From the NCBI GenBank assembly GCA_003597955.1, contig QZJU01000020.1, forward strand, positions 13,459 through 77,458: a stretch of DNA of 64,000 nt. The letters are read 5' to 3'. Positions within the stretch are counted from its first letter, which is position 1. The number at the start of each line of letters is the position of its first letter. The notes below the pieces were generated by a model. That model was not told where the DNA came from. It was given only the letters and a program-made list of their open reading frames with translations, and searched no databases. Source of the DNA: Candidatus Parcubacteria bacterium. Its GTDB lineage: Bacteria; Patescibacteriota; Patescibacteriia; PEXW01. The translations under genes and the position numbers were made by a program. Positions 2,819 to 47,888 of the stretch are shown one piece after another.

Positions 2819-3124
2819 TCATCTCTTCTTGTCCCGATCCTCACTCAAATCTTGCCATTTAGGATTAAGACTTTCAATTAACTCGATTTTCTTTTTTCTG
2901 GAACCAGCCTTGATTTGTTTCTCTCGGGCAATAGCATCCTGAATATACTGAAATTCTTCATAGTAAACTAGCTTATTAATATTGTATTTTTTGGTAAAGC
3001 CTTCGACTTGCTTATGCTTGTGTTGAAATACCCTACTTTCAAGACCCCCGGTAACGCCCGTATACAGAGTGGTATTGTACTTATTAGTCATAATATAAAC
3101 ATAAAACCGTTTTGGTCTTGGCAT
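2819..3124 (-). CDS. GIY-YIG nuclease family protein (UPF0213-type)
   Basis: YVYIMTN...LYTGVT...QHK...LVYYEEF...AIAREKQIK is a classic GIY-YIG domain. Length is 101 aa. Confidence 0.85.
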   Translation of the reverse strand: MPRPKRFYVYIMTNKYNTTLYTGVTGGLESRVFQHKHKQVEGFTKKYNINKLVYYEEFQYIQDAIAREKQIKAGSRKKKIELIESLNPKWQDLSEDRDKKR

Positions 3125-3183
3125 AGTTGGGTAAATAAGGAGATTGCTTCGCTACGCTCGCAATGACAATATGAATGCAAAAC

Positions 3184-6100
3184 CTACCCTCGCCAACGGT
3201 CTTCACAAATCTCCCGAAAATCGCAGGCTGCGCAAGTGAATTTTGAGGGTGTGGCCGCAAAATCACTTTGTAAAATTTCTGAAATTGTCTCGGAAATTTC
3301 CGCTTTGGTTTTCTCAATGGCCTTTTTATCCACCTTATAGGAAAAAGGCTTCTCCGTAGCCAAGTAAATATAGGTGAGTTTTACCGGATTTAATTTCAAA
3401 GCCTCTCTGGCGGCAATGGCATAGATGTGTAATTGCTTCAGTTCCGCGTCTTTTTCTTCTTCCGGCGGCCTTTCCGAAGTTTTATAATCTATAATTTCAA
3501 TGCCGCCAGCCGTGGGATCAATCCGATCGATTTTACCTTTGATTTTTTGATTCCCGATGCTGATGGTGAATCCTTTTTCCAAATCCAGGGGTCTTGGCCA
3601 AGGCTTTGGTAAGTTTTCATAAAACCGTTTTAAATACTCGATCCCCCGCTTTTTGTAGTCGTTTTTCTGGCGGACATCCTCATACCAGGAGTCAATCCAG
3701 GCAGCCTGGTAAAGCTGCTGCAATTCCGCCCAGGTGACCAGAGGTTCGGAATTTTCGGTTTTTTTGCCAATCGGGTTGCCGAAAAGATCCTGCTGATTGG
3801 CATTGCTCCGCTCCCTGACTAATTTAAAGAAATTCAAAAGCGTAGTGTGGATGGTCTGCCCAAAACTAAATGTCGCCCTGCCTTGAACCGGAATTTTCAA
3901 AAGGTGCGCGTACTTGTACTGCTTGGGACATTTTTCAAATGCCTTTAACTGCGTGAAACTGAAATACGGCGGCAAGGCTTTCTTGAGTAAAGCTAGATTG
4001 TTTTCTTTTTGCAATGGCCCGGTTTCCAATTTTTTTAAAAAGCTGGATTTTAATTTATGAACTCTGGATTTTAAGTCGAGTTCGAGTATAAACCTGGACG
4101 GTTTTTTCTTCCGTGTTCCGCCATAATCTTCAGCGGCGGTGAAAAATATGCCCCGCTTCGCCCGGGTAATGCCCACATACAGCAACCGCCTTTCCTCCTG
4201 CAAATGCCAATCCCCTTCCGGCAATCTTTCTTTTACTAACTCGTCCGGCAATTCGATTGGCTCCCGTCTTTCAATGGTCGGGAACCTTTTGTCGACCAAA
4301 TTAACTATGAAGACATAAGCGAATTCCAAGCCTTTGGCTCCGTGGACAGTCATAATTTTCACGGCTTCCGGACCTTGTTCCCATTCGGGCGGGCGCAAAC
4401 TGCCGCTGTCACCGGCTTCCTGGGCAAAAGCCAACTCTCTTAAAAAATTGCCAACCGTCGGTTCAGCGTGGCGGATTTGAAAATTATGAAAAATCTGAAA
4501 AAGCTGGTTGACATAATTAACCTGTTCCAAATGCTCCGCATCGGTTTTTTTTATTACTTCCTTAAGCAAGCCCGAGTCTTCCAAAAACCTTAAAGTGACC
4601 TCCCCAACTGGGTGGATCCTGGCTAATTGCGTATGCCGGTCTAGCCAGCTCAACAACCTCTCAATCGCAATTACGGTTTCGGGCTTTAACCCGCTTAGGA
4701 CGCGGACATTTCGGAGTATTTCATAAAGCGACTTTGTCTCCCGCCGGGCAATAGACATCAAAGTCATGATATCCGGCAAGGAGATTTTTAAAAGCGGCAA
4801 GGTTAAGATCCGATAAAGGCTCGGGGTCTCGTGGTAATTATCCAGAAGTTTTAAATAATTCAAAATATCCAAAATAATCGGCTGGCGATACAAGCCGGCA
4901 GAAGCCAAAAATTGAAATGGGATTTTCAGGTTTTTTAATTTCTGAATGAAAGGCGCGGCATAGTCGTTGGCCCGGACCAAAATCGCAAAATCGTTGTAGG
5001 AAACCTTGCCCTTGCCGGCTTTTCTGACAGCTAGGATTTTCTCAATGACCGCCAAAACTTCCTGTTCCATCGCCGGCATAAGCCAATACTCGATTTCGCC
5101 ACTGGCTTTGGTTTGGGCGACTAATTTCTTGTTGATGACCGGTTTTTTTGAATTTGGCGCTTGGTTTTGGCCGTTAAGCTGAACCTCCAGTCGATTGGGA
5201 TTGTTGTTTTGTATGAATGTGTAGGCCAGATCCAGGATATTCTGGCAGCTTCGGTAATTTTCCGTCAAAACGACTTCCGTGGTTTCCGGAAAATCTTTTT
5301 TAAAGGCTAAAATGTTCGCCACGGACGCGCCTCGAAATTTATATATGCTTTGATCATCGTCGCCCACAACCGTCAAATTGTTGTTCGGCTTAGCCAAAAG
5401 TTTAACCAGTTCGTATTGGGCCCAGTTGGTGTCTTGAAATTCGTCGACTAAAATATATTCGAATTGCTGACGGAATTTATTTAGGATCTTTGGCCGGTTT
5501 TGGAAAAGATACAAAGTCTGGGTGATCAGATCGCCGAAGTCCAACGCGCCTTTTTCAAAAAGCAACTGCTGGTAGGTGTGATAGGCATTAGCGACCTCGT
5601 TAACGCGCTCGGCTTCAACTATCTGATCGGCTTCGGCTTCGGTTTTTCTTTTTCGACCATGAACTTCATCCAAATCCAATTTTAATTTTTCCGCGTACTG
5701 CAAATATTCTTCCGGCCGAATAGCCTCGTCTTTGCAGCGCGAGAAATGCTTGACCAGGCTGGCGACAAAGCGGGTCGGATTGCCTAAAGGCCGATAATAA
5801 TTCAGATCAAAACGCTCCAAATTCTCCCGCATTAAAATTGCTTGGTCGGTTTCATCCAATAGTTTAAAGTCTGGATTTAAGCCGATGTCTAAAGCATGAT
5901 CCCGCAAAATTCTTTCGCAAAAGGCATGAAATGTGGAAACCCACAAATCCACGTAGCCCATGGGTAGAAGCTTGTCCACCCGCTCTTCCATTTCGCCGGC
6001 GGCTTTGTCCGTAAAAGTTAAGGCCAAAATATGATCCGGTTGAACCTTTCGCTCGGCAATCAGCCAAGCGATGCGCTGAGTGATGACCGTGGTTTTGCCT

Positions 6101-6189
6101 GTACCGGCTCCGGCCACAATCAAGAGCGGCCCACTTTTATGGGTAATCGCCTGCTTTTGGGCAGGGTTTAGAGATGGCATAAGAGTCAT
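3184..6189 (-). CDS. UvrD/PcrA-family ATP-dependent helicase fused to a C-terminal RecB/Cas4-like PD-(D/E)XK nuclease with a Cys cluster
   Basis: Walker A (GAGTGKT) and UvrD motifs (DEFQDT, VGDDDQSIY) are present. The C-terminus shows IIDYKT...YIYL...CAACDFREIC, a nuclease with an Fe-S-like cysteine cluster. Confidence 0.88.
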   Translation of the reverse strand: MTLMPSLNPAQKQAITHKSGPLLIVAGAGTGKTTVITQRIAWLIAERKVQPDHILALTFTDKAAGEMEERVDKLLPMGYVDLWVSTFHAFCERILRDHALDIGLNPDFKLLDETDQAILMRENLERFDLNYYRPLGNPTRFVASLVKHFSRCKDEAIRPEEYLQYAEKLKLDLDEVHGRKRKTEAEADQIVEAERVNEVANAYHTYQQLLFEKGALDFGDLITQTLYLFQNRPKILNKFRQQFEYILVDEFQDTNWAQYELVKLLAKPNNNLTVVGDDDQSIYKFRGASVANILAFKKDFPETTEVVLTENYRSCQNILDLAYTFIQNNNPNRLEVQLNGQNQAPNSKKPVINKKLVAQTKASGEIEYWLMPAMEQEVLAVIEKILAVRKAGKGKVSYNDFAILVRANDYAAPFIQKLKNLKIPFQFLASAGLYRQPIILDILNYLKLLDNYHETPSLYRILTLPLLKISLPDIMTLMSIARRETKSLYEILRNVRVLSGLKPETVIAIERLLSWLDRHTQLARIHPVGEVTLRFLEDSGLLKEVIKKTDAEHLEQVNYVNQLFQIFHNFQIRHAEPTVGNFLRELAFAQEAGDSGSLRPPEWEQGPEAVKIMTVHGAKGLEFAYVFIVNLVDKRFPTIERREPIELPDELVKERLPEGDWHLQEERRLLYVGITRAKRGIFFTAAEDYGGTRKKKPSRFILELDLKSRVHKLKSSFLKKLETGPLQKENNLALLKKALPPYFSFTQLKAFEKCPKQYKYAHLLKIPVQGRATFSFGQTIHTTLLNFFKLVRERSNANQQDLFGNPIGKKTENSEPLVTWAELQQLYQAAWIDSWYEDVRQKNDYKKRGIEYLKRFYENLPKPWPRPLDLEKGFTISIGNQKIKGKIDRIDPTAGGIEIIDYKTSERPPEEEKDAELKQLHIYAIAAREALKLNPVKLTYIYLATEKPFSYKVDKKAIEKTKAEISETISEILQSDFAATPSKFTCAACDFREICEDRWRG

Positions 6190-6322
6190 GAAGGTATTTT
6201 ATAACAGATCAGAAATAAATAAAAAATCGCCACGATTATTTCCGGCTGCGTTTTTTTGCGCTTGCTCCCGCACCACCCTGTACCCGAGTGCAACGAGTGG
6301 TACGGTGCTGGTGTGGAGCTGA

Positions 6323-7066
6323 CTATTTTTCGGCTTTAAACTCGGTTATATTGATTTCGCTGGTGTGCGATACCGTGATGTAGGTCGGAGCGTGTTCGCC
6401 GGTCCAGCACCCGGCGTTGAAATAAACCACGCCATCCTGATTGAAGCTTTCGGCGATGTGCGTATGCCCGCAAAAAACCGCGTCCAAGCGGTAATTCCTC
6501 GACCGAGCGTACCTAACAATGCCTTCGGCCACGGATTTGTTTATCCGCAGCCAAGTCTTGCTTTTGTCTTTTAAAAAACGGCTTAAATGGTGGCGTTTGC
6601 CATCGAATTTTTGAATAAAGTTGTAAATGTTTGAAGGAATCTTGCTGAATTTCGGCCAATTTTGAATCCATTTGTCAAACTGATCACCATGCATGGCCAA
6701 ATACCGCTTTTCTCCGACTTGCCACTGGAATTCCTCATGCACGGCCACACCCACCAGTTGCGACATTAAGTTCACGATGGCGCTATCATGGTTGCCCCGA
6801 ATCCAAACGGCTTTGGCATTACTTTTTCGGTCGTTAATATTGCGAATCAAACCGATTATTTTCCATTCAAATTTCCGAAAACGGGAAAAATTAAGATCGT
6901 CAAAAATGTCGCCTAACAGAATTAGCTGGGTAAATTTGTATCTGAAACGATCCTGCTGCAAACTCTGCAAAAATGCAAAAAATTCTTCGGATCGGCTTAA
7001 GCGCGAGCCCAGGTGTAAGTCCGAGACCAGAATAGTGTGAAAACCATTCGGATTTTGAAAATTCAT
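6323..7066 (-). CDS. Calcineurin-like metallophosphoesterase (LpxH-like)
   Basis: The motifs DLHLG, GDIFD, GNHD, HGD and GHTH are all present. Confidence 0.82.
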   Translation of the reverse strand: MNFQNPNGFHTILVSDLHLGSRLSRSEEFFAFLQSLQQDRFRYKFTQLILLGDIFDDLNFSRFRKFEWKIIGLIRNINDRKSNAKAVWIRGNHDSAIVNLMSQLVGVAVHEEFQWQVGEKRYLAMHGDQFDKWIQNWPKFSKIPSNIYNFIQKFDGKRHHLSRFLKDKSKTWLRINKSVAEGIVRYARSRNYRLDAVFCGHTHIAESFNQDGVVYFNAGCWTGEHAPTYITVSHTSEINITEFKAEK

Positions 7067-10775: not shown

Positions 10776-10868
10776 ATTTTTTTCGGTTTAAAGTTAAGGA
10801 TTTAAAAATATCAAAAGTTTTATAAAAAGAAAAGCCGCTAGTCCTTTTAACTAACGGCCAAATTTTAT

Positions 10869-10970
10869 CCCGCACCACTTTCCAGCAAAACGTTGTTATA
10901 CACTTTAAGATATTCATCCGGGCAAATATCTTCAAAATTAATTCGAGATTTAAGTGAAAAGTGGTGCGGG
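10869..10970. repeat. MITE-like palindromic element A (102 bp) with 15-18 bp terminal inverted repeats cccgcaccactttccagc / gaaaagtggtgcggg
   Basis: Perfect inverted termini. It shares its terminal sequence with elements B and C but has a different interior. It lies 4 nt downstream of the stop of the 10974..11516 gene. Confidence 0.7.
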
Positions 10971-10973
10971 ATT

Positions 10974-11516: not shown

Positions 11517-11597
11517 GCTTTCCTCCGTGAAAAAATGATTTTTAAAAAACGATGTTGATTTTGAAAAACCAGTTTATCAGAAATCCAAAAAAAGTCA

Positions 11598-11702
11598 ACC
11601 CCGAACCACTTTCCAAATAAAACCTTAAGTTTAGTGTAAGGTTATTTGCCTAATGAACATCTTGGTACTAAGTGTTGGCGTTTTGCTGGAAAGTGGTGCG
11701 GG
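11598..11702. repeat. MITE-like element B (105 bp), homologous to element C, TIR ccccgaaccactttccaa / ctggaaagtggtgcgggg
   Basis: About 85% identical to the element at 22292..22396 over its full length (read by eye). It has inverted termini. Confidence 0.75.
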
Positions 11703-11740
11703 GTCAAGGCCAACTAAATCTGACTTGAAAATTCTTTGAC

Positions 11741-22263: not shown

Positions 22264-22291
22264 AATGCTGATATTTTAGCATAGACCTTGA

Positions 22292-22396
22292 CCCCGCACC
22301 ACTTTCCAAAATAAACTTTAAGTTTTTTGTAAGGCTATTTACCTAATAAACATATTAGTGATAAGTGTTGGCGTTTTGCTGGAAAGTGGTGCGGGG
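22292..22396. repeat. MITE-like element C (105 bp), homolog of element B
   Basis: TIR ccccgcaccactttccaaa / tttgctggaaagtggtgcgggg. The interior is near-identical to B. It sits in the divergent promoter region between the EamA and NUDIX genes. Confidence 0.75.
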
Positions 22397-22507
22397 TTGA
22401 CAAAAACCAAAAAATCCTTTAATATCATCAGCTAAGTCTGCTCAAAAATTCTTTTAAAATTTGAGCCTAATAAACCGATCATTACATAAACCACTGGAGG
22501 TTTTCGA

Positions 22508-25213: not shown

Positions 25214-25302
25214 GGTGCTTTTAGCTTACGATTTTTTGCTCAAAAACACAAGAAAAAAGCGGACCTTAATTGATCCGCTTTTAAAAACTAAAGAACGCTT
25301 TA

Positions 25303-25376
25303 TGCGGGCAGGTGGAATTGCACCACCGACGTTCGGGTTAATAATCCCCGACATTCTACTCCTGAGTTATACCCGC
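25303..25376 (-). pseudogene. tRNA-like element (possible degenerate tRNA)
   Basis: It has a 7-bp acceptor stem GCGGGTA/TGCCCGC, a perfect T-arm GGTGG-TGCAATT-CCACC, and U8, A14, G15 and G18. The D-stem cannot pair canonically and the anticodon stem has a mismatch. The putative anticodon would be UAU. Confidence 0.25.
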
Positions 25377-25606
25377 AATTTTTATAGCCCCGGGCTGGAT
25401 TTGTCCCGCCATAGAGGCGGGATGCCGCCGACTTTTGTTGACTTCAATAGATGGCGGCAAACCAGCAACCTTCGGTAAATTCCTGCACATGCCCATTAAT
25501 ACTGAGGCTCCCTGCCTGTCGCCAGGCAGGTACCGACTAAGCTACCGGGGTGACTTTTTTGCGAATTTTCACCTTAGCATACGCGCCGTTTTCAAGTCAA
25601 AAAACT

Positions 25607-41270: not shown

Positions 41271-41518
41271 GGCATTAGTATATCACTTCGGCCTTTTGGA
41301 AATTTCTTGAAATCTTCAGTACTTAAAAACATTTTTATGCCTCGATGCTGGAGATGCGATGGAAAGGTCATGGCCCCACCCACGCGCCCATTGACATTTC
41401 CTCCCAAATACATTATTCTGACTTATTCTTTGACAATATCCCGAGTAATAACCTCGGGCCGAAATCTCGCCGGGACGCGAGAAAACAAACAGTAATCCTG
41501 AAAAGGAGGATGAAGACG

Positions 41519-42421
41519 ATGTCACAGAAGACATTGATCCCGTCCAGAGTCACCCGTGATTCCAAGAAGGGCCAGAGAATTCTGGACCTCGTGGGTGCCG
41601 TCATCAACAAGCTTGGCCTTGATGAAGACCAGGCCCAGCGGGTAATCGAGAATCCCGAATTCCCGCCAGCTGTCGAAGCCGTATTGCGAACCTACGCGAT
41701 TCCGAATGAGTACGCCGATGAAGAGGTCTCCTCGAATTATGGCTACTTGTCCGGCTATCGCGAGGCAGCACCGATCGCTGACCAGATGCGCATCTTGCGC
41801 GAATACTTCCCGAACCTTGGTGATCCGGATGAAAGCTTCGCCAAGCAGGAACGTCCGGCAAACAGCGAAGGGTACTTCTGTATCCCGCGCTGGAAGCTGA
41901 TCGCCCCGACCTACAACGAGGCTGTCGAGAGGGTGCTCGAAGCGCTCAACAAACAACGCAAGGGCAAGTTCGTCAACTACCACAAAGGTGAACTCGGCCC
42001 GGATCGTTTGAGGCAGGGCGAACGGAAGCGTCTCGCTTTCGAGCGGCTCACCGTAGAGCAGGGACGTGACGTCCTTGTGGTGGCTGCCCAGTTCGGCTTC
42101 CAGCATCACGGACGTTCGGTTCGCAGAGCTCGTGCAGTCATGCCTGGCATCGAGTTCGGCCTTGGTGCCTTCGAGATCGGCATCATGCTGCTGACGCATG
42201 CGATCCGTCTCCAGCATCTCGACGACCTCTGGATCGACTGCCCTGGTGATGAGTACTCACCTGACGCTGGTGGCCGCTTCGGCGACGCCCCGTACTTCTA
42301 CTTCGGCAATGGCAAGCTCGAGTTCGGCACGGACCTCGTCGGCAATGCCAGCGGCCGCTGTGGGTCGGCGTCCGGGTTTTTACCCGCCGAAGCAACTGCG
42401 AAGGCGGGCTCTCCGCAGTAG
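41519..42421 (+). CDS. Hypothetical protein encoded by a GC-rich (about 60%) foreign-looking segment
   Basis: The ORF is open from 41345. The start was chosen at the ATG 9 nt after an AGGAGG RBS. Codon third positions are G/C-rich, unlike the rest of the window. No recognised domain. Confidence 0.5.
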   Translation: MSQKTLIPSRVTRDSKKGQRILDLVGAVINKLGLDEDQAQRVIENPEFPPAVEAVLRTYAIPNEYADEEVSSNYGYLSGYREAAPIADQMRILREYFPNLGDPDESFAKQERPANSEGYFCIPRWKLIAPTYNEAVERVLEALNKQRKGKFVNYHKGELGPDRLRQGERKRLAFERLTVEQGRDVLVVAAQFGFQHHGRSVRRARAVMPGIEFGLGAFEIGIMLLTHAIRLQHLDDLWIDCPGDEYSPDAGGRFGDAPYFYFGNGKLEFGTDLVGNASGRCGSASGFLPAEATAKAGSPQ

Positions 42422-42627: not shown

Positions 42628-43032
42628 ATGCAGATCAACTACTTCTTTCAGGCTGTCTGGAATAATATCCGGCTCTTGACTAATGTCGTTCCGAGCACAG
42701 ATTCGGTTCCGGAAAGAATTTACAAATTGACTGACGAGGTCGATCCGATCCGGGTGGAAGAAGCCCTACTTTGGATAGCAGACGCGACCATCGGCCGGGA
42801 GGGCTTGTACATACATGACGGCGGCGATCCTGCTCAGGTCGTCGGCCAGCTAAATTTGATCGCCCAGCAATTTCGAGTTCTTTATCCCAGCAAACTTGAA
42901 TGCACTGACCTAAGGCTCTGGAGCGATCTTCTCGCCGGTCTGGCGCTGGCCTACCTGGCACCGAAAAGTTCGGTTTTTCTTGACACCGTTGCCAAAAAAC
43001 CGAATTCCATCTATGAGCTTGTGGCTGCCTAA
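42628..43032 (+). CDS. Hypothetical protein (moderately GC-elevated)
   Basis: 134 aa. An AAGGAG RBS is upstream and a terminator hairpin follows at 43038..43080. Confidence 0.4.
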   Translation: MQINYFFQAVWNNIRLLTNVVPSTDSVPERIYKLTDEVDPIRVEEALLWIADATIGREGLYIHDGGDPAQVVGQLNLIAQQFRVLYPSKLECTDLRLWSDLLAGLALAYLAPKSSVFLDTVAKKPNSIYELVAA

Positions 43033-43095
43033 GACTTTGCCCGCGTCGAATTGAATTAACGACGCGGGTTTACTTTTTCTATATACTGACTGTAT

Positions 43096-43548
43096 ATGCC
43101 GCAATTGACCAAAAACCGCAAAGCCAATTTTAATTACGATGTCCTGGAAAAGTACGAAGCCGGCATTGTTTTAACCGGACCTGAAGTCAAATCGGTAAAA
43201 GCCGGAAATTTAAGCCTCCAAGGCGCTTATGTTAGTTTGCGGGAAAATTCCTTGTGGCTGGTGCACGCCTTTATCGCGCCTTACAAGCCTGCTAGGACTT
43301 TTCAAACCAATTACAATCCCGAAAGGGAAAGAAGGCTTCTGCTAACGAAAAATGAAATTTCCGGACTGGTCGGCAAAATGCACAGCGCCGGGTTGACTTT
43401 AATCCCTCTAAGCTTCTATACTCAGCGGGGTTTGGTGAAAGTTGCTTTAGGCTTAGCCCGGGGCAAAAAAGCCCACGATAAAAGAGCCAGCATTAAAAAA
43501 CGCGAAATTGCCCGGGATATTGGGAGAGCCTTAAGAAATAAGATTTAG
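43096..43548 (+). CDS. smpB: SsrA-binding protein SmpB
   Basis: GIVLTGPEVKS and a C-terminal basic tail. 150 aa. Confidence 0.9.
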   Translation: MPQLTKNRKANFNYDVLEKYEAGIVLTGPEVKSVKAGNLSLQGAYVSLRENSLWLVHAFIAPYKPARTFQTNYNPERERRLLLTKNEISGLVGKMHSAGLTLIPLSFYTQRGLVKVALGLARGKKAHDKRASIKKREIARDIGRALRNKI

Positions 43549-43662
43549 CTGTAGTTGATTGCAATAGCGTGATTATTAGTTTTGTTTCCAAGCCCAAAGC
43601 CACAAAAACTTTTTAAATCCTAAAGAACGTCAACATAAGAAAATTTCAAACACTTTTCTCAT

Positions 43663-44069
43663 GGGGATGTTCATAAGTTGATAGTTTGCTTTGACAATTA
43701 GCCTGCGGACCGCCTTTTTCGGGAATGGCGTAAAACTTTCTGAAAATTAGACAAATGCCAATTCATTTGTCAGCAAAGTGAAGACTGCATTGGCCAAAAC
43801 CTTTGCCGTCCCAGCTTTCGCTCCGGTTGTTGCTTAAAAACCAATAACCCATTCGCCCCGCAGCCTGATGCGGGATTCGCGAGTGTTAAATTTCAGGCTG
43901 GATATTTTTCACCGCGCGCTGAAAAATATTGAGAAACTTGCGCGCTTTGGCGTTTTGCGATCTTGGTTGTTCCCTGCGCAAAATGTCGAAAACCCTTGAA
44001 CAACCTATGTCCGAAGAAAGTTAATTGCCGGTAAACTAGACAGGGGTGCAAGACCCCTCATCTCCACCA
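43663..44069 (+). ncRNA. ssrA: tmRNA (ssrA)
   Basis: The 5' GGGGATG pairs with the 3' CATCTCC-A-CCA, giving a 7-bp acceptor stem with a G3·U70 wobble (the alanine identity element). A T-arm AGGGG-TGCAAGA-CCCCT directly precedes it. A D-analog UUCAUAAGUUGAUA follows the 5' strand. It sits immediately downstream of smpB. A candidate tag ORF ends ...FAPVVA-TAA. Confidence 0.72.
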
Positions 44070-44156
44070 TGAACCATTCGCTTCGCTCATGTTCATGGCA
44101 AGCCATAAATATGTCAGATTGAAAAAGTATTTGTCGTAGAGTCAAGTCTTGCGAAT

Positions 44157-44200
44157 GGTTCATGCCCTGTACCCGAGCTTCGCGGGTGGTACAGGGAAAG
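44157..44200. repeat. Palindromic hairpin ccctgtacccgagcttcgcgggtggtacaggg (family 2, related to 6270..6312)
   Basis: Seen directly. It has nested inverted repeats. It lies between the tmRNA 3' end and the GIY-YIG gene. Confidence 0.6.
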
Positions 44201-44218
44201 AGTAAAAAGGGACAAACT

Positions 44219-44485
44219 ATGAACTTCAAATTTGTTTACATTTTGCAAAGCTTAAAAGACCACCGGCTCTATATTGGATTTACCGAAAAGCTCAAAACTC
44301 GGATGAAGGCACATGCAGCCGGTCAAAATCAATCTACCAAAAACCGAAGACCATTGAAATTAATTTATTTCGAAGGCTTTTTATCCGAAATTGATGCTCG
44401 AAGACGAGAAAAGTACTTCAAGTCCACCAAGGGGAAAACCACTCTCAAAATAATGCTTAAAGATCATTTTAGAACCCAAGAGTAA
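44219..44485 (+). CDS. GIY-YIG nuclease family protein (second copy)
   Basis: FKFVYILQS...RLYIGFTEKLKTRMKAHAAG...LIYFEGF...ARRREKYFKS. An AAGGGA RBS precedes the ATG at 44219. Confidence 0.8.
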   Translation: MNFKFVYILQSLKDHRLYIGFTEKLKTRMKAHAAGQNQSTKNRRPLKLIYFEGFLSEIDARRREKYFKSTKGKTTLKIMLKDHFRTQE

Positions 44486-44577
44486 AACATCTGATTTAAA
44501 AAACATTAATGCTTTTGCATTCAACTTTACTTGGCTACTCAATATTTAAGAATAAACGAATTTTTCCGGGTAGGTTT

Positions 44578-44600
44578 TTGATGTGATATAATATCCCTAT
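44578..44600 (+). promoter_or_regulatory. Candidate sigma70 promoter with extended -10 (TGaTATAAT) for infC-rpmI-rplT
   Basis: tttttgatgtgatataat, with TGnTATAAT about 25 nt upstream of the infC start. Confidence 0.4.
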
Positions 44601-44623
44601 CTCGCCCTTAAAAACTCAAGATC

Positions 44624-45136
44624 ATTAGCACAAAAAGATTCCGCATAAATGAGCAAATCCGGCTGCCGGAAGTTCAAGTTATTGGCCCGGACGGCAAGTT
44701 CCTGGGGCAGATGCCCACTTCGCACGCCCTGGACCTGGCCCGAGACCAGGAATTAGACCTGGTGGAAGTGAATCCTGTCGCCCGCCCCCCGATCTGTAAA
44801 ATCATCAATTGGGGTTCCTACCTGTACCAGCAGGAAAAGGCCGAGCGCAAACAAAAAGCCAAACAAAAGAGCGCTGAAGTAAAGGGTTTAAGACTTTCGC
44901 TTAAAATCGGGACGCACGATTTGGAATTGCGTAAAAATCAGGCTTTAAAATTTTTCGAACAGGGTGACCGGGTCAAAGTGGAAATGATTTTGCGAGGTCG
45001 GGAAAGAGCGAGAATGGATCTAGCGAAAAAAATCATCAGCGATTTTATCGCGAGTTTAGGCGACGGCGTTATGGTCGACTCCCCGATCAGCGCCATGGGC
45101 GGCCGCTTGACCGTTCTGCTAAGGCAGAAAAAGTGA
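44624..45136 (+). CDS. infC: Translation initiation factor IF-3, non-ATG (ATT or ATC) start
   Basis: In-frame N-terminus ...IISTKRFRINEQIRLPEVQVIGPDGKFLG precedes the first ATG. The C-terminal domain is ELRKNQALKFFEQGDRVKVEMILRGRE. No ATG lies upstream in frame, as in the canonical AUU-start infC. Confidence 0.82.
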   Translation: MSTKRFRINEQIRLPEVQVIGPDGKFLGQMPTSHALDLARDQELDLVEVNPVARPPICKIINWGSYLYQQEKAERKQKAKQKSAEVKGLRLSLKIGTHDLELRKNQALKFFEQGDRVKVEMILRGRERARMDLAKKIISDFIASLGDGVMVDSPISAMGGRLTVLLRQKK

Positions 45137-45196
45137 AGCGCTCCCCGGGCTAACTATCTGGAGTTTCAACTCTTGTCGGCTTTCGGGGCGCGGAAC

Positions 45197-45234
45197 CCCG
45201 CACCATCACACAAAATTCGGGACTGGTGCGTGGG
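45197..45234. repeat. REP-like hairpin ccccgcaccatcacacaaaattcgggactggtgcgtggg
   Basis: 'ccccgcacca' family. It lies between infC and rpmI. Confidence 0.55.
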
Positions 45235-45308
45235 TAAGCCCAACCTTATCCAGACACTTGACGCATCGGCAAAAAGCCGATAGAGTTTAACTCACCTTTA
45301 ACGATTTT

Positions 45309-47708: not shown

Positions 47709-47787
47709 GGGCTCGTGGTGTAGCCCGGTCTAACACGTCTCCCTGTCACGGAGAAGATCGCCGGTTCAAATCCGGTCGAGCCCGCCA
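47709..47787 (+). tRNA. tRNA-Asp (anticodon GUC), CCA encoded
   Basis: Acceptor GGGCTCG/CGAGCCC, D-stem GTGT/ACAC, anticodon stem TCTCC/GGAGA with loop CTGTCAC, T-arm GCCGG-TTCAAAT-CCGGT, discriminator G, then CCA. Confidence 0.9.
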
Positions 47788-47841: not shown

Positions 47842-47888
47842 GGTCACGGAGAAGATCGTCCCGCCGAATGGCGGGGTCAGGTCCGCCA
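47842..47888 (+). repeat. Degenerate direct repeat of the tRNA-Asp 3' half (att-like scar)
   Basis: ggtcacggagaagatcg matches 16 of 17 nt of the tRNA anticodon-arm 3' side. It ends ...ccgcca like the tRNA 3' end. It lies 55 nt downstream of the tRNA. Confidence 0.55.

Follow-up and report, generated by a model that had tools for sequence, protein, structure and literature searches.

A minimal GIY-YIG nuclease gene behind the tmRNA gene of a Candidatus Parcubacteria bacterium: a candidate selfish cassette of tRNA-like gene ends

Introduction

SegB of phage T4 is a GIY-YIG homing endonuclease whose gene belongs to a cluster of tRNA genes, and the TpsiC stem-loop motif forms part of its recognition site (PMC2330249). 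In a survey of GIY-YIG proteins published in 2006, the stand-alone Slx1-like proteins of prokaryotes were described as a 'minimal variant' without an assigned function, and Dunin-Horkawicz et al. noted the fusion of an Slx1-like domain to a TrmH-type tRNA methyltransferase, suggesting a role in RNA metabolism (PMC1564403). In the literature that was searched, the coverage of which was incomplete, no minimal GIY-YIG cassettes at tRNA or transfer-messenger RNA (tmRNA) ends and no inverted-repeat-bounded units were described, nor, for the UPF0213 proteins, any palindromic leaders, terminal inverted repeats or presence/absence. The present analysis concerns a stretch of 64,000 nucleotides (nt) from a Candidatus Parcubacteria bacterium (referred to as the window), in which a small GIY-YIG nuclease gene lies between ssrA, the gene of tmRNA, and infC. 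A leader of ~150 nt and a gene for a protein of 88 amino acids (aa) form a cassette of ~485 bp (~44070-44555), and sequence comparisons suggest, with a probability that we put at about 0.6, that it is a selfish, horizontally moving unit of tRNA-like 3' ends. The main interest lies in the cassette behind the tmRNA, the tmRNA itself being routine. Features of the window are listed in Table 1, and loci on other contigs are designated by L numbers.

Variable occupation of the ssrA 3' flank

Close relatives were obtained by exact SmpB look-ups and compared along the gene order argS, a hypothetical gene, smpB, ssrA, the variable position, infC, rpmI, rplT and PMT_2. In L171, the tmRNA stands alone between smpB and infC, and in L175, whose SmpB is 90% identical to that of L171, a leader and a GIY-YIG gene occupy the same site. 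The two loci are nearly identical across the tmRNA up to ...CATCTCCACC and diverge exactly at its 3' end, where ~480 nt (leader plus GIY-YIG gene) in L175 correspond to a terminator of ~45 nt in L171, and homology returns ~20 nt before the infC promoter. In the window, similarity to close relatives resumes ~30 nt 5' of the infC -10 box (gatataat, ~44583).

A GIY-YIG gene of another lineage is found at this site in L170/L169 and L173/L174, whose SmpB proteins are 80% and 76% identical to that of the window, respectively. When the window is compared with L170, L173 and L175, identities reach 73-80% for SmpB, 79-87% for IF3 and 81-87% for L20, versus 34-38% for the GIY-YIG protein; in distant Patescibacteria (L010, L012, L044 and L072), in which the GIY-YIG gene likewise lies between an Rfam-confirmed tmRNA and infC, the corresponding values are 47-49%, 38-49% and 50-55%, versus 51-62% for the GIY-YIG protein. 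Such discordance between the nuclease and its neighbours in sequence identity supports lineage replacement at the site. In addition, a metagenome sample centred on SmpB, which comprised loci other than the closest relatives, was inspected; among the matches listed, 10 of 12 smpB-to-infC loci have no space beyond that taken by the tmRNA, a GIY-YIG gene of yet another type follows the tmRNA in one (L113), and the gap is larger in the remaining locus. Judging from these empty, occupied and swapped alleles and from the metagenome counts, the ssrA 3' flank is therefore a site that is variably empty or filled by different GIY-YIG lineages. An initial annotation of the window, made from the sequence alone, had proposed that the gene was inserted directly at the tmRNA 3' end, and this view of an insertion-type accessory gained from the comparison of the ssrA-infC interval between genomes: the gene is not universal (L171 is empty), and both presence/absence and lineage replacement occur among close relatives.

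A different explanation is that the GIY-YIG protein is a resident, vertically inherited nuclease of DNA repair (Slx1-like) or RNA metabolism, co-transcribed with tRNA or tmRNA genes owing to a functional link with them, and that the variation reflects loss and fast divergence rather than mobility. The order smpB-ssrA-GIY-YIG-infC in at least nine diverged Patescibacteria is in line with this explanation, as are the conserved catalytic residues, which imply purifying selection, the tight same-strand adjacency to tRNA genes, which fits co-expression, and the suggested role in RNA metabolism of the fusion with a TrmH-type methyltransferase (PMC1564403). Vertical descent is difficult to reconcile with the identities, however, as the window protein shares only 34-38% with the copies of its closest relatives and 51-67% with those of distant or unrelated contigs. 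Further observations that speak against a resident gene are found outside the ssrA locus, and on balance we consider it unlikely.

Leader-plus-gene units behind other tRNA genes

The spacer of 149 nt between the tmRNA and the GIY-YIG start is strongly structured in the window (RNA fold of 44066-44225: -53.6 kcal/mol, z -4.46). Its first part is bounded by a perfect 14-bp inverted repeat (arms 44068-81 and 44151-64), which was absent from the initial annotation; the first arm begins with the CA of the tmRNA CCA, and ~69 nt are enclosed, with a small hairpin ATGGC-AA-GCCAT (44095-44106). A second palindrome, hairpin H, directly follows this repeat, with 9-bp arms at 44165-44173 and 44188-44196 (DNA fold z -3.5).

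Leaders of this type were also found directly after the CCA of other genes. The CCA is followed by TGAACCATTCG in the window tmRNA, by TAAACCATTCG in a tRNA-Ser copy of L085, by TGTACCACTCA in a tRNA of L212, and by CGAACCACTCG in the tRNA-Leu of L004. The window, L085 and L212 have a hairpin ATGCCCTGTACCCGA...GAGTGGTAC 5' of the ATG, and a more diverged inverted repeat, CCATGAACC...GGAATGGTTCAT, takes the position of hairpin H in L004. The leader of L085 reads CCA, TAAACCATTCG...GTTCATGGCGCAGCCAT...GAATGGTTTATGCCCTGTACCCGA...GAGTGGTACGGGG and then ATG; hairpin H of the window, including the preceding arm, is identical at 26 of 28 nt to positions 2990-3017 of L085, and the L085 protein is 65% identical to that of the window, its gene having HD-GYP and PAS-kinase genes as neighbours. 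In L212 (protein 55% identical), the closing stem measures 17 bp and these hairpins are present in two tandem units, and in L004 (protein 60% identical) a related leader follows tRNA-Leu. The sister lineage L170/L173/L175 has the same leader plan with different sequences, namely a stem starting from the CCA, GCCTTCGC...GCGAAGGC, with an inner hairpin, and there the 3' arm of the last hairpin is the GGAGG ribosome-binding site. This shared architecture was read directly from each sequence, and no covariation is claimed for it since the leaders align too poorly in MAFFT and RNAalifold. The occurrence of the same leader-plus-gene unit behind different tRNA genes and in unrelated neighbourhoods is hardly expected of a resident, vertically inherited gene.

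In L085, repeats of the tRNA-Ser 3' end (three copies; 35 nt, 74-91% identity) surround the unit, and an additional repeat of 63 nt, with the terminator included, is also present. These flanking target repeats likewise argue against a resident gene, and they resemble the attachment-type repeats of an integrase-mediated island or prophage, of which the window cassette might be a decayed remnant at the ssrA 3' end. The 3' ends of ssrA are well-known integrase attachment sites, which would fit such an origin, and the initial annotation had invoked the tmRNA as a classic integration site; that term refers to integrase-borne islands, however, and the window has neither an integrase nor a repeat of the ssrA 3' end within three mismatches. 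The GIY-YIG gene is the sole open reading frame (ORF) in the ~550 nt between ssrA and infC, ~10 independent genomes contain this small unit, in no case accompanied by an integrase, and neither a PHROG match nor more than a trace of the family in IMG/VR was found, so that descent from an island is barely credible.

Hairpin H recurs once in the window, at 6276-6306. The 13-mer CCCTGTACCCGAG has exact matches in the window only at 6276 and 44165, and the 3' arm GTGGTAC is common to both sites; the 6276-6306 copy is nested in a longer imperfect hairpin (6264-6319). An exact 13-mer shared within 64 kb is expected by chance, and the match is considered meaningful because GIY-YIG homologs of other contigs are preceded by this hairpin as well. 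The palindromes could instead be generic terminators, RNA-processing hairpins or repetitive extragenic palindromic (REP)-like repeats, without any link to GIY-YIG genes and recurring by coincidence. The empty allele L171 also has a terminator hairpin starting from the tmRNA 3' end, the 6270 copy closely follows the stop codon of a gene, hairpins of other families adjoin the CCA in numerous Patescibacteria loci, and the shared 13-mer by itself is not rare, all of which would suit generic palindromes. Nevertheless, conservation extends to the hairpin sequence itself before the GIY-YIG homologs of two unrelated contigs (L085, with 26 of 28 nt, and L212), neither window hairpin is followed by a T-run, and the motif is confined to these sites of the window; a generic origin therefore appears quite improbable.

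The initial annotation had linked a recurring nested palindrome to both GIY-YIG genes of the window as a small mobile module. The palindrome before the first gene exists (44165-44196), its recurrence near 6270 holds for the exact 13-mer and the shared 3' arm, and its membership in a GIY-YIG module is borne out by the same hairpin before the homologs of L085 and L212. The pairing of the second copy with the second GIY-YIG gene did not stand: the two are 3.1 kb apart, and that gene belongs to another subfamily with a different flanking inverted repeat. The 6270 copy had also been placed downstream of the helicase gene; it lies upstream of this minus-strand gene (3184-6189), between its start and the stop of the minus-strand gene 6323-7066.

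Several loci show other hairpins at CCA ends. In L009, L011, L012, L013, L034, L044, L051, L072 and L087, hairpins in the 3' flank of tRNA or tmRNA genes have a 5' arm that includes the terminal (A)CCA; they share a conserved palindromic centre, GCTNAGC, with stems differing by genome, and they often occur in pairs and often have a GIY-YIG gene behind them. In the window, tRNA-Asp (47709-47787) is followed at 47845-47880 by a partial copy of its 3' half, CACGGAGAAGATCG...TCAGGTCCGCCA, whose T-arm is replaced by a GC hairpin, CCCGCCGAATGGCGGG, and similar hairpin-substituted pseudo-tRNA fragments were observed beside GIY-YIG genes and tRNAs in L024, L028, L041, L050, L063 and L066.

The minimal GIY-YIG protein

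The ORF at 44162-44485 comprises 107 codons, the length given by the initial annotation, of which the first 19 are the palindrome read as protein. The gene probably starts at ATG 44219, since both an alignment with 37 homologs and an 88-aa database entry indicate this start; the protein then has 88 rather than 107 aa, and the distance to the tmRNA 3' end becomes 149 nt, close to the ~150 nt first noted. ORFs of these GIY-YIG genes are often over-extended through palindromes, which should be considered in annotation.

PF01541 covers residues 4-74 of the protein (56.3 bits versus a gathering score of 22.6), and Pfam detected no domain besides it. Residues Y7, Y18, G20, R28, H32 and E64 are invariant or nearly so across 38 aligned sequences. 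The AlphaFold2 model (pLDDT 91) was compared with known structures by Foldseek, which gave 1zg2 (8e-5) and Slx1 (7cq2, 3e-4), with the UvrC and I-TevI domains (1yd6 and 1ln0) at only ~1.2; similarly, the family profile matched the UPF0213 proteins BH0048 (1zg2, 9e-13) and EF2693 (1ywl, 2e-10) among PDB sequences. NCBIfam gave sub-threshold matches only (grpIintron_endo, 18.5 bits versus a cut-off of 56), no PHROGs family was matched, and a DNA-binding module joined to the catalytic domain, as in homing endonucleases, is not present. On the basis of these profile matches, the predicted fold, the lack of a DNA-binding module and of a PHROG match, and the sub-threshold NCBIfam result, the protein is classified as a minimal nuclease of the Slx1/UPF0213 type and not as a classical homing endonuclease. 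Its size had been regarded as typical of homing-endonuclease-like proteins, a description that fits less well than that of a minimal Slx1/UPF0213 domain without a DNA-binding module.

Behaviour of the wider family

Clustering at 50% identity (E up to 1e-3) gives 28,623 clusters for this very large family, and nearly all of them are of 85-130 aa. Eighty loci with 48-62% identity, taken from contigs of one genome per species, were examined, which belonged to Patescibacteria, Bacteroidota, KSB1, Omnitrophota, Nitrospirota and others. A tRNA or tmRNA gene lies within 250 nt of 21 of 79 genes, nearly always on the same strand, and the density of such genes is 0.62 per kb near the GIY-YIG gene versus 0.068 per kb in the far flanks (~9x, p = 3e-12). 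In several loci, the stop codon of the GIY-YIG gene touches or runs into the 5' end of a tRNA, and a partial pseudo-tRNA is found upstream.

Another part of the family is bounded by inverted repeats. Flanking inverted repeats of at least 14 nt were found for 39 of 85 genes versus 5 of 423 control intervals; the consensus of the left repeat is TTCACCCYGTTAAAT and that of the right repeat ATTTAACAGGGTRAA, the repeats of the ~290-bp units measure 15-19 bp, and the stop codon lies inside the right repeat. The 26 units with exactly located end motifs span 270-301 bp, and 22-24 of them lie between TT and AA; the exact insertion point, judged from restored host reading frames, is ambiguous by 1-2 nt. 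Units of ~290 bp split a tyrosine recombinase gene between LLGHKNV and KTTMIYTHV (L007), AlbA_2-type genes between LNAV and NKDY (L027, L031 and L055), and PF05635 genes after ...LTDQI (L056, L058, L071 and others), and units of this kind were also noted in L177/L181 and ~30 further loci. On one contig, an identical 86-aa gene occurs twice, in different PF05635 genes and at the same codon, and ORF-less pairs of the inverted repeats also occur. As far as can be judged from sequence, the wider family behaves as mobile DNA, and a resident repair or RNA-metabolism gene would not be expected to interrupt host ORFs or to occur as identical copies twice on one contig.

In L003, L047, L063, L068, L071, L084 and L178-L186, GIY-YIG genes form tandem pairs 100-1000 nt apart, usually of different sublineages, which suggests that insertion recurred at or next to copies already present. 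In an Omnitrophota chromosome (L019, 2900-3900), a GIY-YIG homolog (2995-3333) lies between a tRNA-like 5' half and a group I intron (3690-3899, Rfam 80.7 bits), and this gene may be a distant, intron-associated member of the family. Twenty-four matches of the 15-mer ATGCCCTGTACCCGA in viral contigs were set aside as chance, since none is palindromic.

Mechanism and weight of the evidence

If the cassette is a selfish unit, the nuclease would cut within or next to the conserved tRNA-like 3' domain of alleles that lack the cassette, as phage T4 SegB might lead one to suppose; alternatively, as a structure-selective Slx1-like enzyme, it might cut the palindrome hairpins or cruciforms there. The Slx1 enzymes that have been characterised choose their DNA substrates by structure and not by sequence, and the adjacent palindromes or the cloverleaf-forming gene would for this reason be plausible substrates. 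Recombinational repair from an occupied copy could then install the cassette. The promoter-less GIY-YIG gene might be expressed by read-through from the strongly transcribed RNA gene, with the leader hairpins limiting translation or marking processing sites; in the sister lineage, the ribosome-binding site GGAGG is buried in the last hairpin. A promoter and terminator scan of 43000-45300 gave nothing beyond shuffled expectation. Cleavage, gene conversion, expression by ssrA read-through and hairpin-controlled translation are all steps that we infer, in part by analogy. The intact catalytic residues and the Slx1-like predicted fold are counted in favour of a selfish cassette.

Several observations weigh against this reading. 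The difference between L171 and L175 is compatible with gain or loss alike, and the arrangement ssrA-GIY-YIG-infC in at least nine diverged Patescibacteria could mean a long-resident useful gene. MAFFT and RNAalifold, applied to six and then four leaders, gave a poor alignment and no compensatory pairs for the long-range stem. The best flanking inverted repeat of the main copy in the window is 9 nt, equal to the control median and thus background, and neither an 18-mer search with up to three mismatches nor a repeat search revealed another copy of the ssrA 3' end in the window. Hairpin H has only two copies in 64 kb, and the right boundary of the cassette is approximate. A protein-profile scan of 2.9 million viral contigs (IMG/VR) gave one related locus, so that no vector is evident. 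In addition, cleavage, transposition and homing are presumptive for every member of the family, and to our knowledge every characterised homing endonuclease has a sequence-reading module, none of which is evident in the 88-aa domain.

A broader and more tentative proposal, which we regard as possible, is that many of the stand-alone 85-100-aa Slx1/UPF0213 proteins (~28,600 clusters) are the sole gene of unrecognised, ultra-compact mobile elements. These elements would take two forms: units of ~290 bp with terminal inverted repeats of 15-19 bp (TTCACCCYGTTAAAT...ATTTAACAGGGTRAA), inserted precisely into ORFs, mostly between TT and AA; and cassettes of ~0.5 kb with a palindromic leader, docked behind the CCA of a tRNA or tmRNA gene, as in the window. 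If true, no smaller protein-coding mobile DNA would be known from bacteria, and, if the units move alone, a new kind of homing or transposition would be driven solely by a structure-selective nuclease, with hairpins or cruciforms as its substrates, and by the repair systems of the host.

The host locus and other features of the window

The smpB-ssrA pair of the window is ordinary and the tmRNA is normal, with smpB located 115 nt upstream. The ssrA call of the initial annotation, with the same coordinates (43663-44069), was upheld by the covariance model RF00023, which matched over its full length (1-374) with 81.8 bits versus a gathering score of 47 (E 3.5e-30), and the G3.U acceptor stem, T-arm, encoded CCA and smpB adjacency on which that call had been founded are all present. 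The acceptor stem is GGGGAUG/CAUCUCC with the G3.U pair, followed by the discriminator A and the encoded CCA; the T-arm is GGGG-UGCAAGA-CCCC with a non-canonical T-loop, and this unusual loop may explain why ARAGORN made no call at a position where Rfam calls a tmRNA. The tag frame translates as ANSFVSKVKTALAKTFAVPAFAPVVA followed by a stop, so that the tag ends in ...PVVA, and the resume codon GCC at 43757 is aligned with the GCA of the RF00023 model.

Table 1. Coordinates of the cassette, its host locus and related features in the window
Feature	Position	Strand	Basis or remarks
Second GIY-YIG unit; ORF 2819-3124, 101 aa	2775..3169	-	PF01541 1.4e-12, 48.2 bits; other subfamily
Solo hairpin H copy, CCCTGTACCCGAG-TGCAA-CGAGTGGTACGG	6276..6306	+	Sequence match; DNA fold z -2.2
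smpB (SsrA-binding protein), 150 aa	43096..43548	+	Pfam PF01668, 1.1e-50; identical database protein is Candidatus Parcubacteria bacterium SmpB
ssrA (tmRNA), one-piece	43663..44069	+	Rfam RF00023; G3.U in acceptor stem, T-arm GGGGUGCAAGACCCC, encoded CCA
tmRNA tag reading frame	43757..43837	+	Resume codon GCC, 26 codons, then UAA; predicted tag (A)NSFVSKVKTALAKTFAVPAFAPVVA
Leader, first part	44068..44164	+	Perfect 14-bp inverted repeat CATGAACCATTCGC / GCGAATGGTTCATG
Leader hairpin H, CCCTGTACC-CGAGCTTCGCGGGT-GGTACAGGG	44165..44196	+	Repeat and fold analysis
Minimal GIY-YIG nuclease gene (predicted), 88 aa, Slx1/UPF0213-like	44219..44485	+	PF01541 4e-15; conserved catalytic residues; AlphaFold2 model
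Cassette 3' tail	44486..44555	+	Interval comparison of window, L170, L173, L175 and L171; right boundary approximate
infC (IF-3), ATT start, conserved neighbour bounding the insertion site	44624..45136	+	Translation; Pfam IF3_N and IF3_C

Within the tmRNA, a segment just past the tag stop (43844-43861, ATAACCCATTCGCCCCGC) resembles the leader start (44069-44086, ATGAACCATTCGCTTCGC) at 14 of 18 nt and is 85% complementary to the leader 3' arm, which may be chance or an alternative pairing. Two ORFs 5' of smpB, 42628-43032 (134 aa) and 41345-42421 (358 aa), have no Pfam match, and all close relatives have an ORF of 134-154 aa without a recorded Pfam hit immediately 5' of smpB, on the opposite strand in L171.

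The second GIY-YIG paralog of the window, at 2819-3124, was confirmed by PF01541 and shares 33% identity with the first protein. The unit is flanked by TTGTCATTGCGAG (3169-3157) and CTCGCAATGACAG (2787-2775), which are inverted and match at 12 of 13 nt; this repeat is suggestive only, since 12 nt are attained in ~7% of the control intervals. Beyond the stop codon of this paralog lies a GC hairpin, ATCCCGCGCTGCGGGAT, and in L089 a member of a subfamily related to it lies immediately after smpB.

Two further features of the window were recorded. A miniature inverted-repeat transposable element (MITE)-like element of ~110 nt is present in three intergenic copies (10864-10972, 11591-11709 and 22284-22401), whose ends are terminal inverted repeats of ~24 nt, (GTCAA)CCCCGCACCACTTTCCAGCAAAACG, around a variable centre. 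At 25302-25377 on the minus strand, ARAGORN predicted a tRNA-Ile with the anticodon TAT, which received only 38.9 bits from Rfam; UAU isoleucine tRNAs are uncommon in bacteria.

Comparison with known systems

In family, size, minimal domain and predicted fold, the window protein is similar to YhbQ of E. coli, YazA of B. subtilis, BH0048 (1ZG2) and EF2693 (1YWL), which, unlike the window gene, have been treated as housekeeping proteins in the literature searched. The selfish cassette suggested here would give this very large and functionally unassigned bacterial UPF0213/Slx1-like family a role at the ends of tRNA-like genes and, in other forms, as inserted units of ~290 bp between inverted repeats. 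If confirmed, it would also show that a minimal nuclease domain without a DNA-reading module can sustain mobility, and it would explain several recurrent oddities of Patescibacteria genomes, among them CCA ends that run into hairpins, pseudo-tRNA fragments, and gene calls with spurious N-terminal extensions.

With integrase-borne islands and prophages, the cassette shares its target, the 3' end of a tRNA-like gene, and, in L085, the repeats of the tRNA 3' end; it differs in having no integrase, a single 88-aa nuclease gene as cargo, a length of ~0.5 kb and, in the window, no repeat of the ssrA end. The terminal inverted repeats of insertion sequences and MITEs are lacking in the main copy of the window, and repeats of at least 14 nt flank 39 of the 85 homologs. 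REP elements with their REP-associated tyrosine transposases (REP/RAYT, or REPtrons) and the IS200/IS605 insertion sequences also combine a small nuclease gene with short palindromes, of which solo copies are found elsewhere; unlike them, the window unit has a GIY-YIG protein instead of an HUH/Y1 transposase, and, as hairpin H is limited to the leader and the 6276-6306 copy, the palindrome has undergone no REP-like proliferation within the 64 kb.

The phage context of homing endonucleases does not apply to the window protein (no PHROG and one viral locus). Compared with it, SegB, the nearest precedent among known systems, is larger, belongs to the I-TevI-like branch, and is phage-borne and free-standing, whereas the window protein is a single domain of 88 aa from the Slx1/UPF0213 branch, chromosomal in Patescibacteria and many other phyla, with a putative activity deduced from sequence. 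Nevertheless, both have a GIY-YIG domain, both genes lie among or behind tRNA-type genes and vary in presence and absence between related genomes, and a TpsiC-type target is the kind of target that the position of the window cassette would imply. Confirmation of the cassette would mean that SegB-type homing at tRNA genes occurs not only in phages but also on the cellular chromosomes of different phyla.

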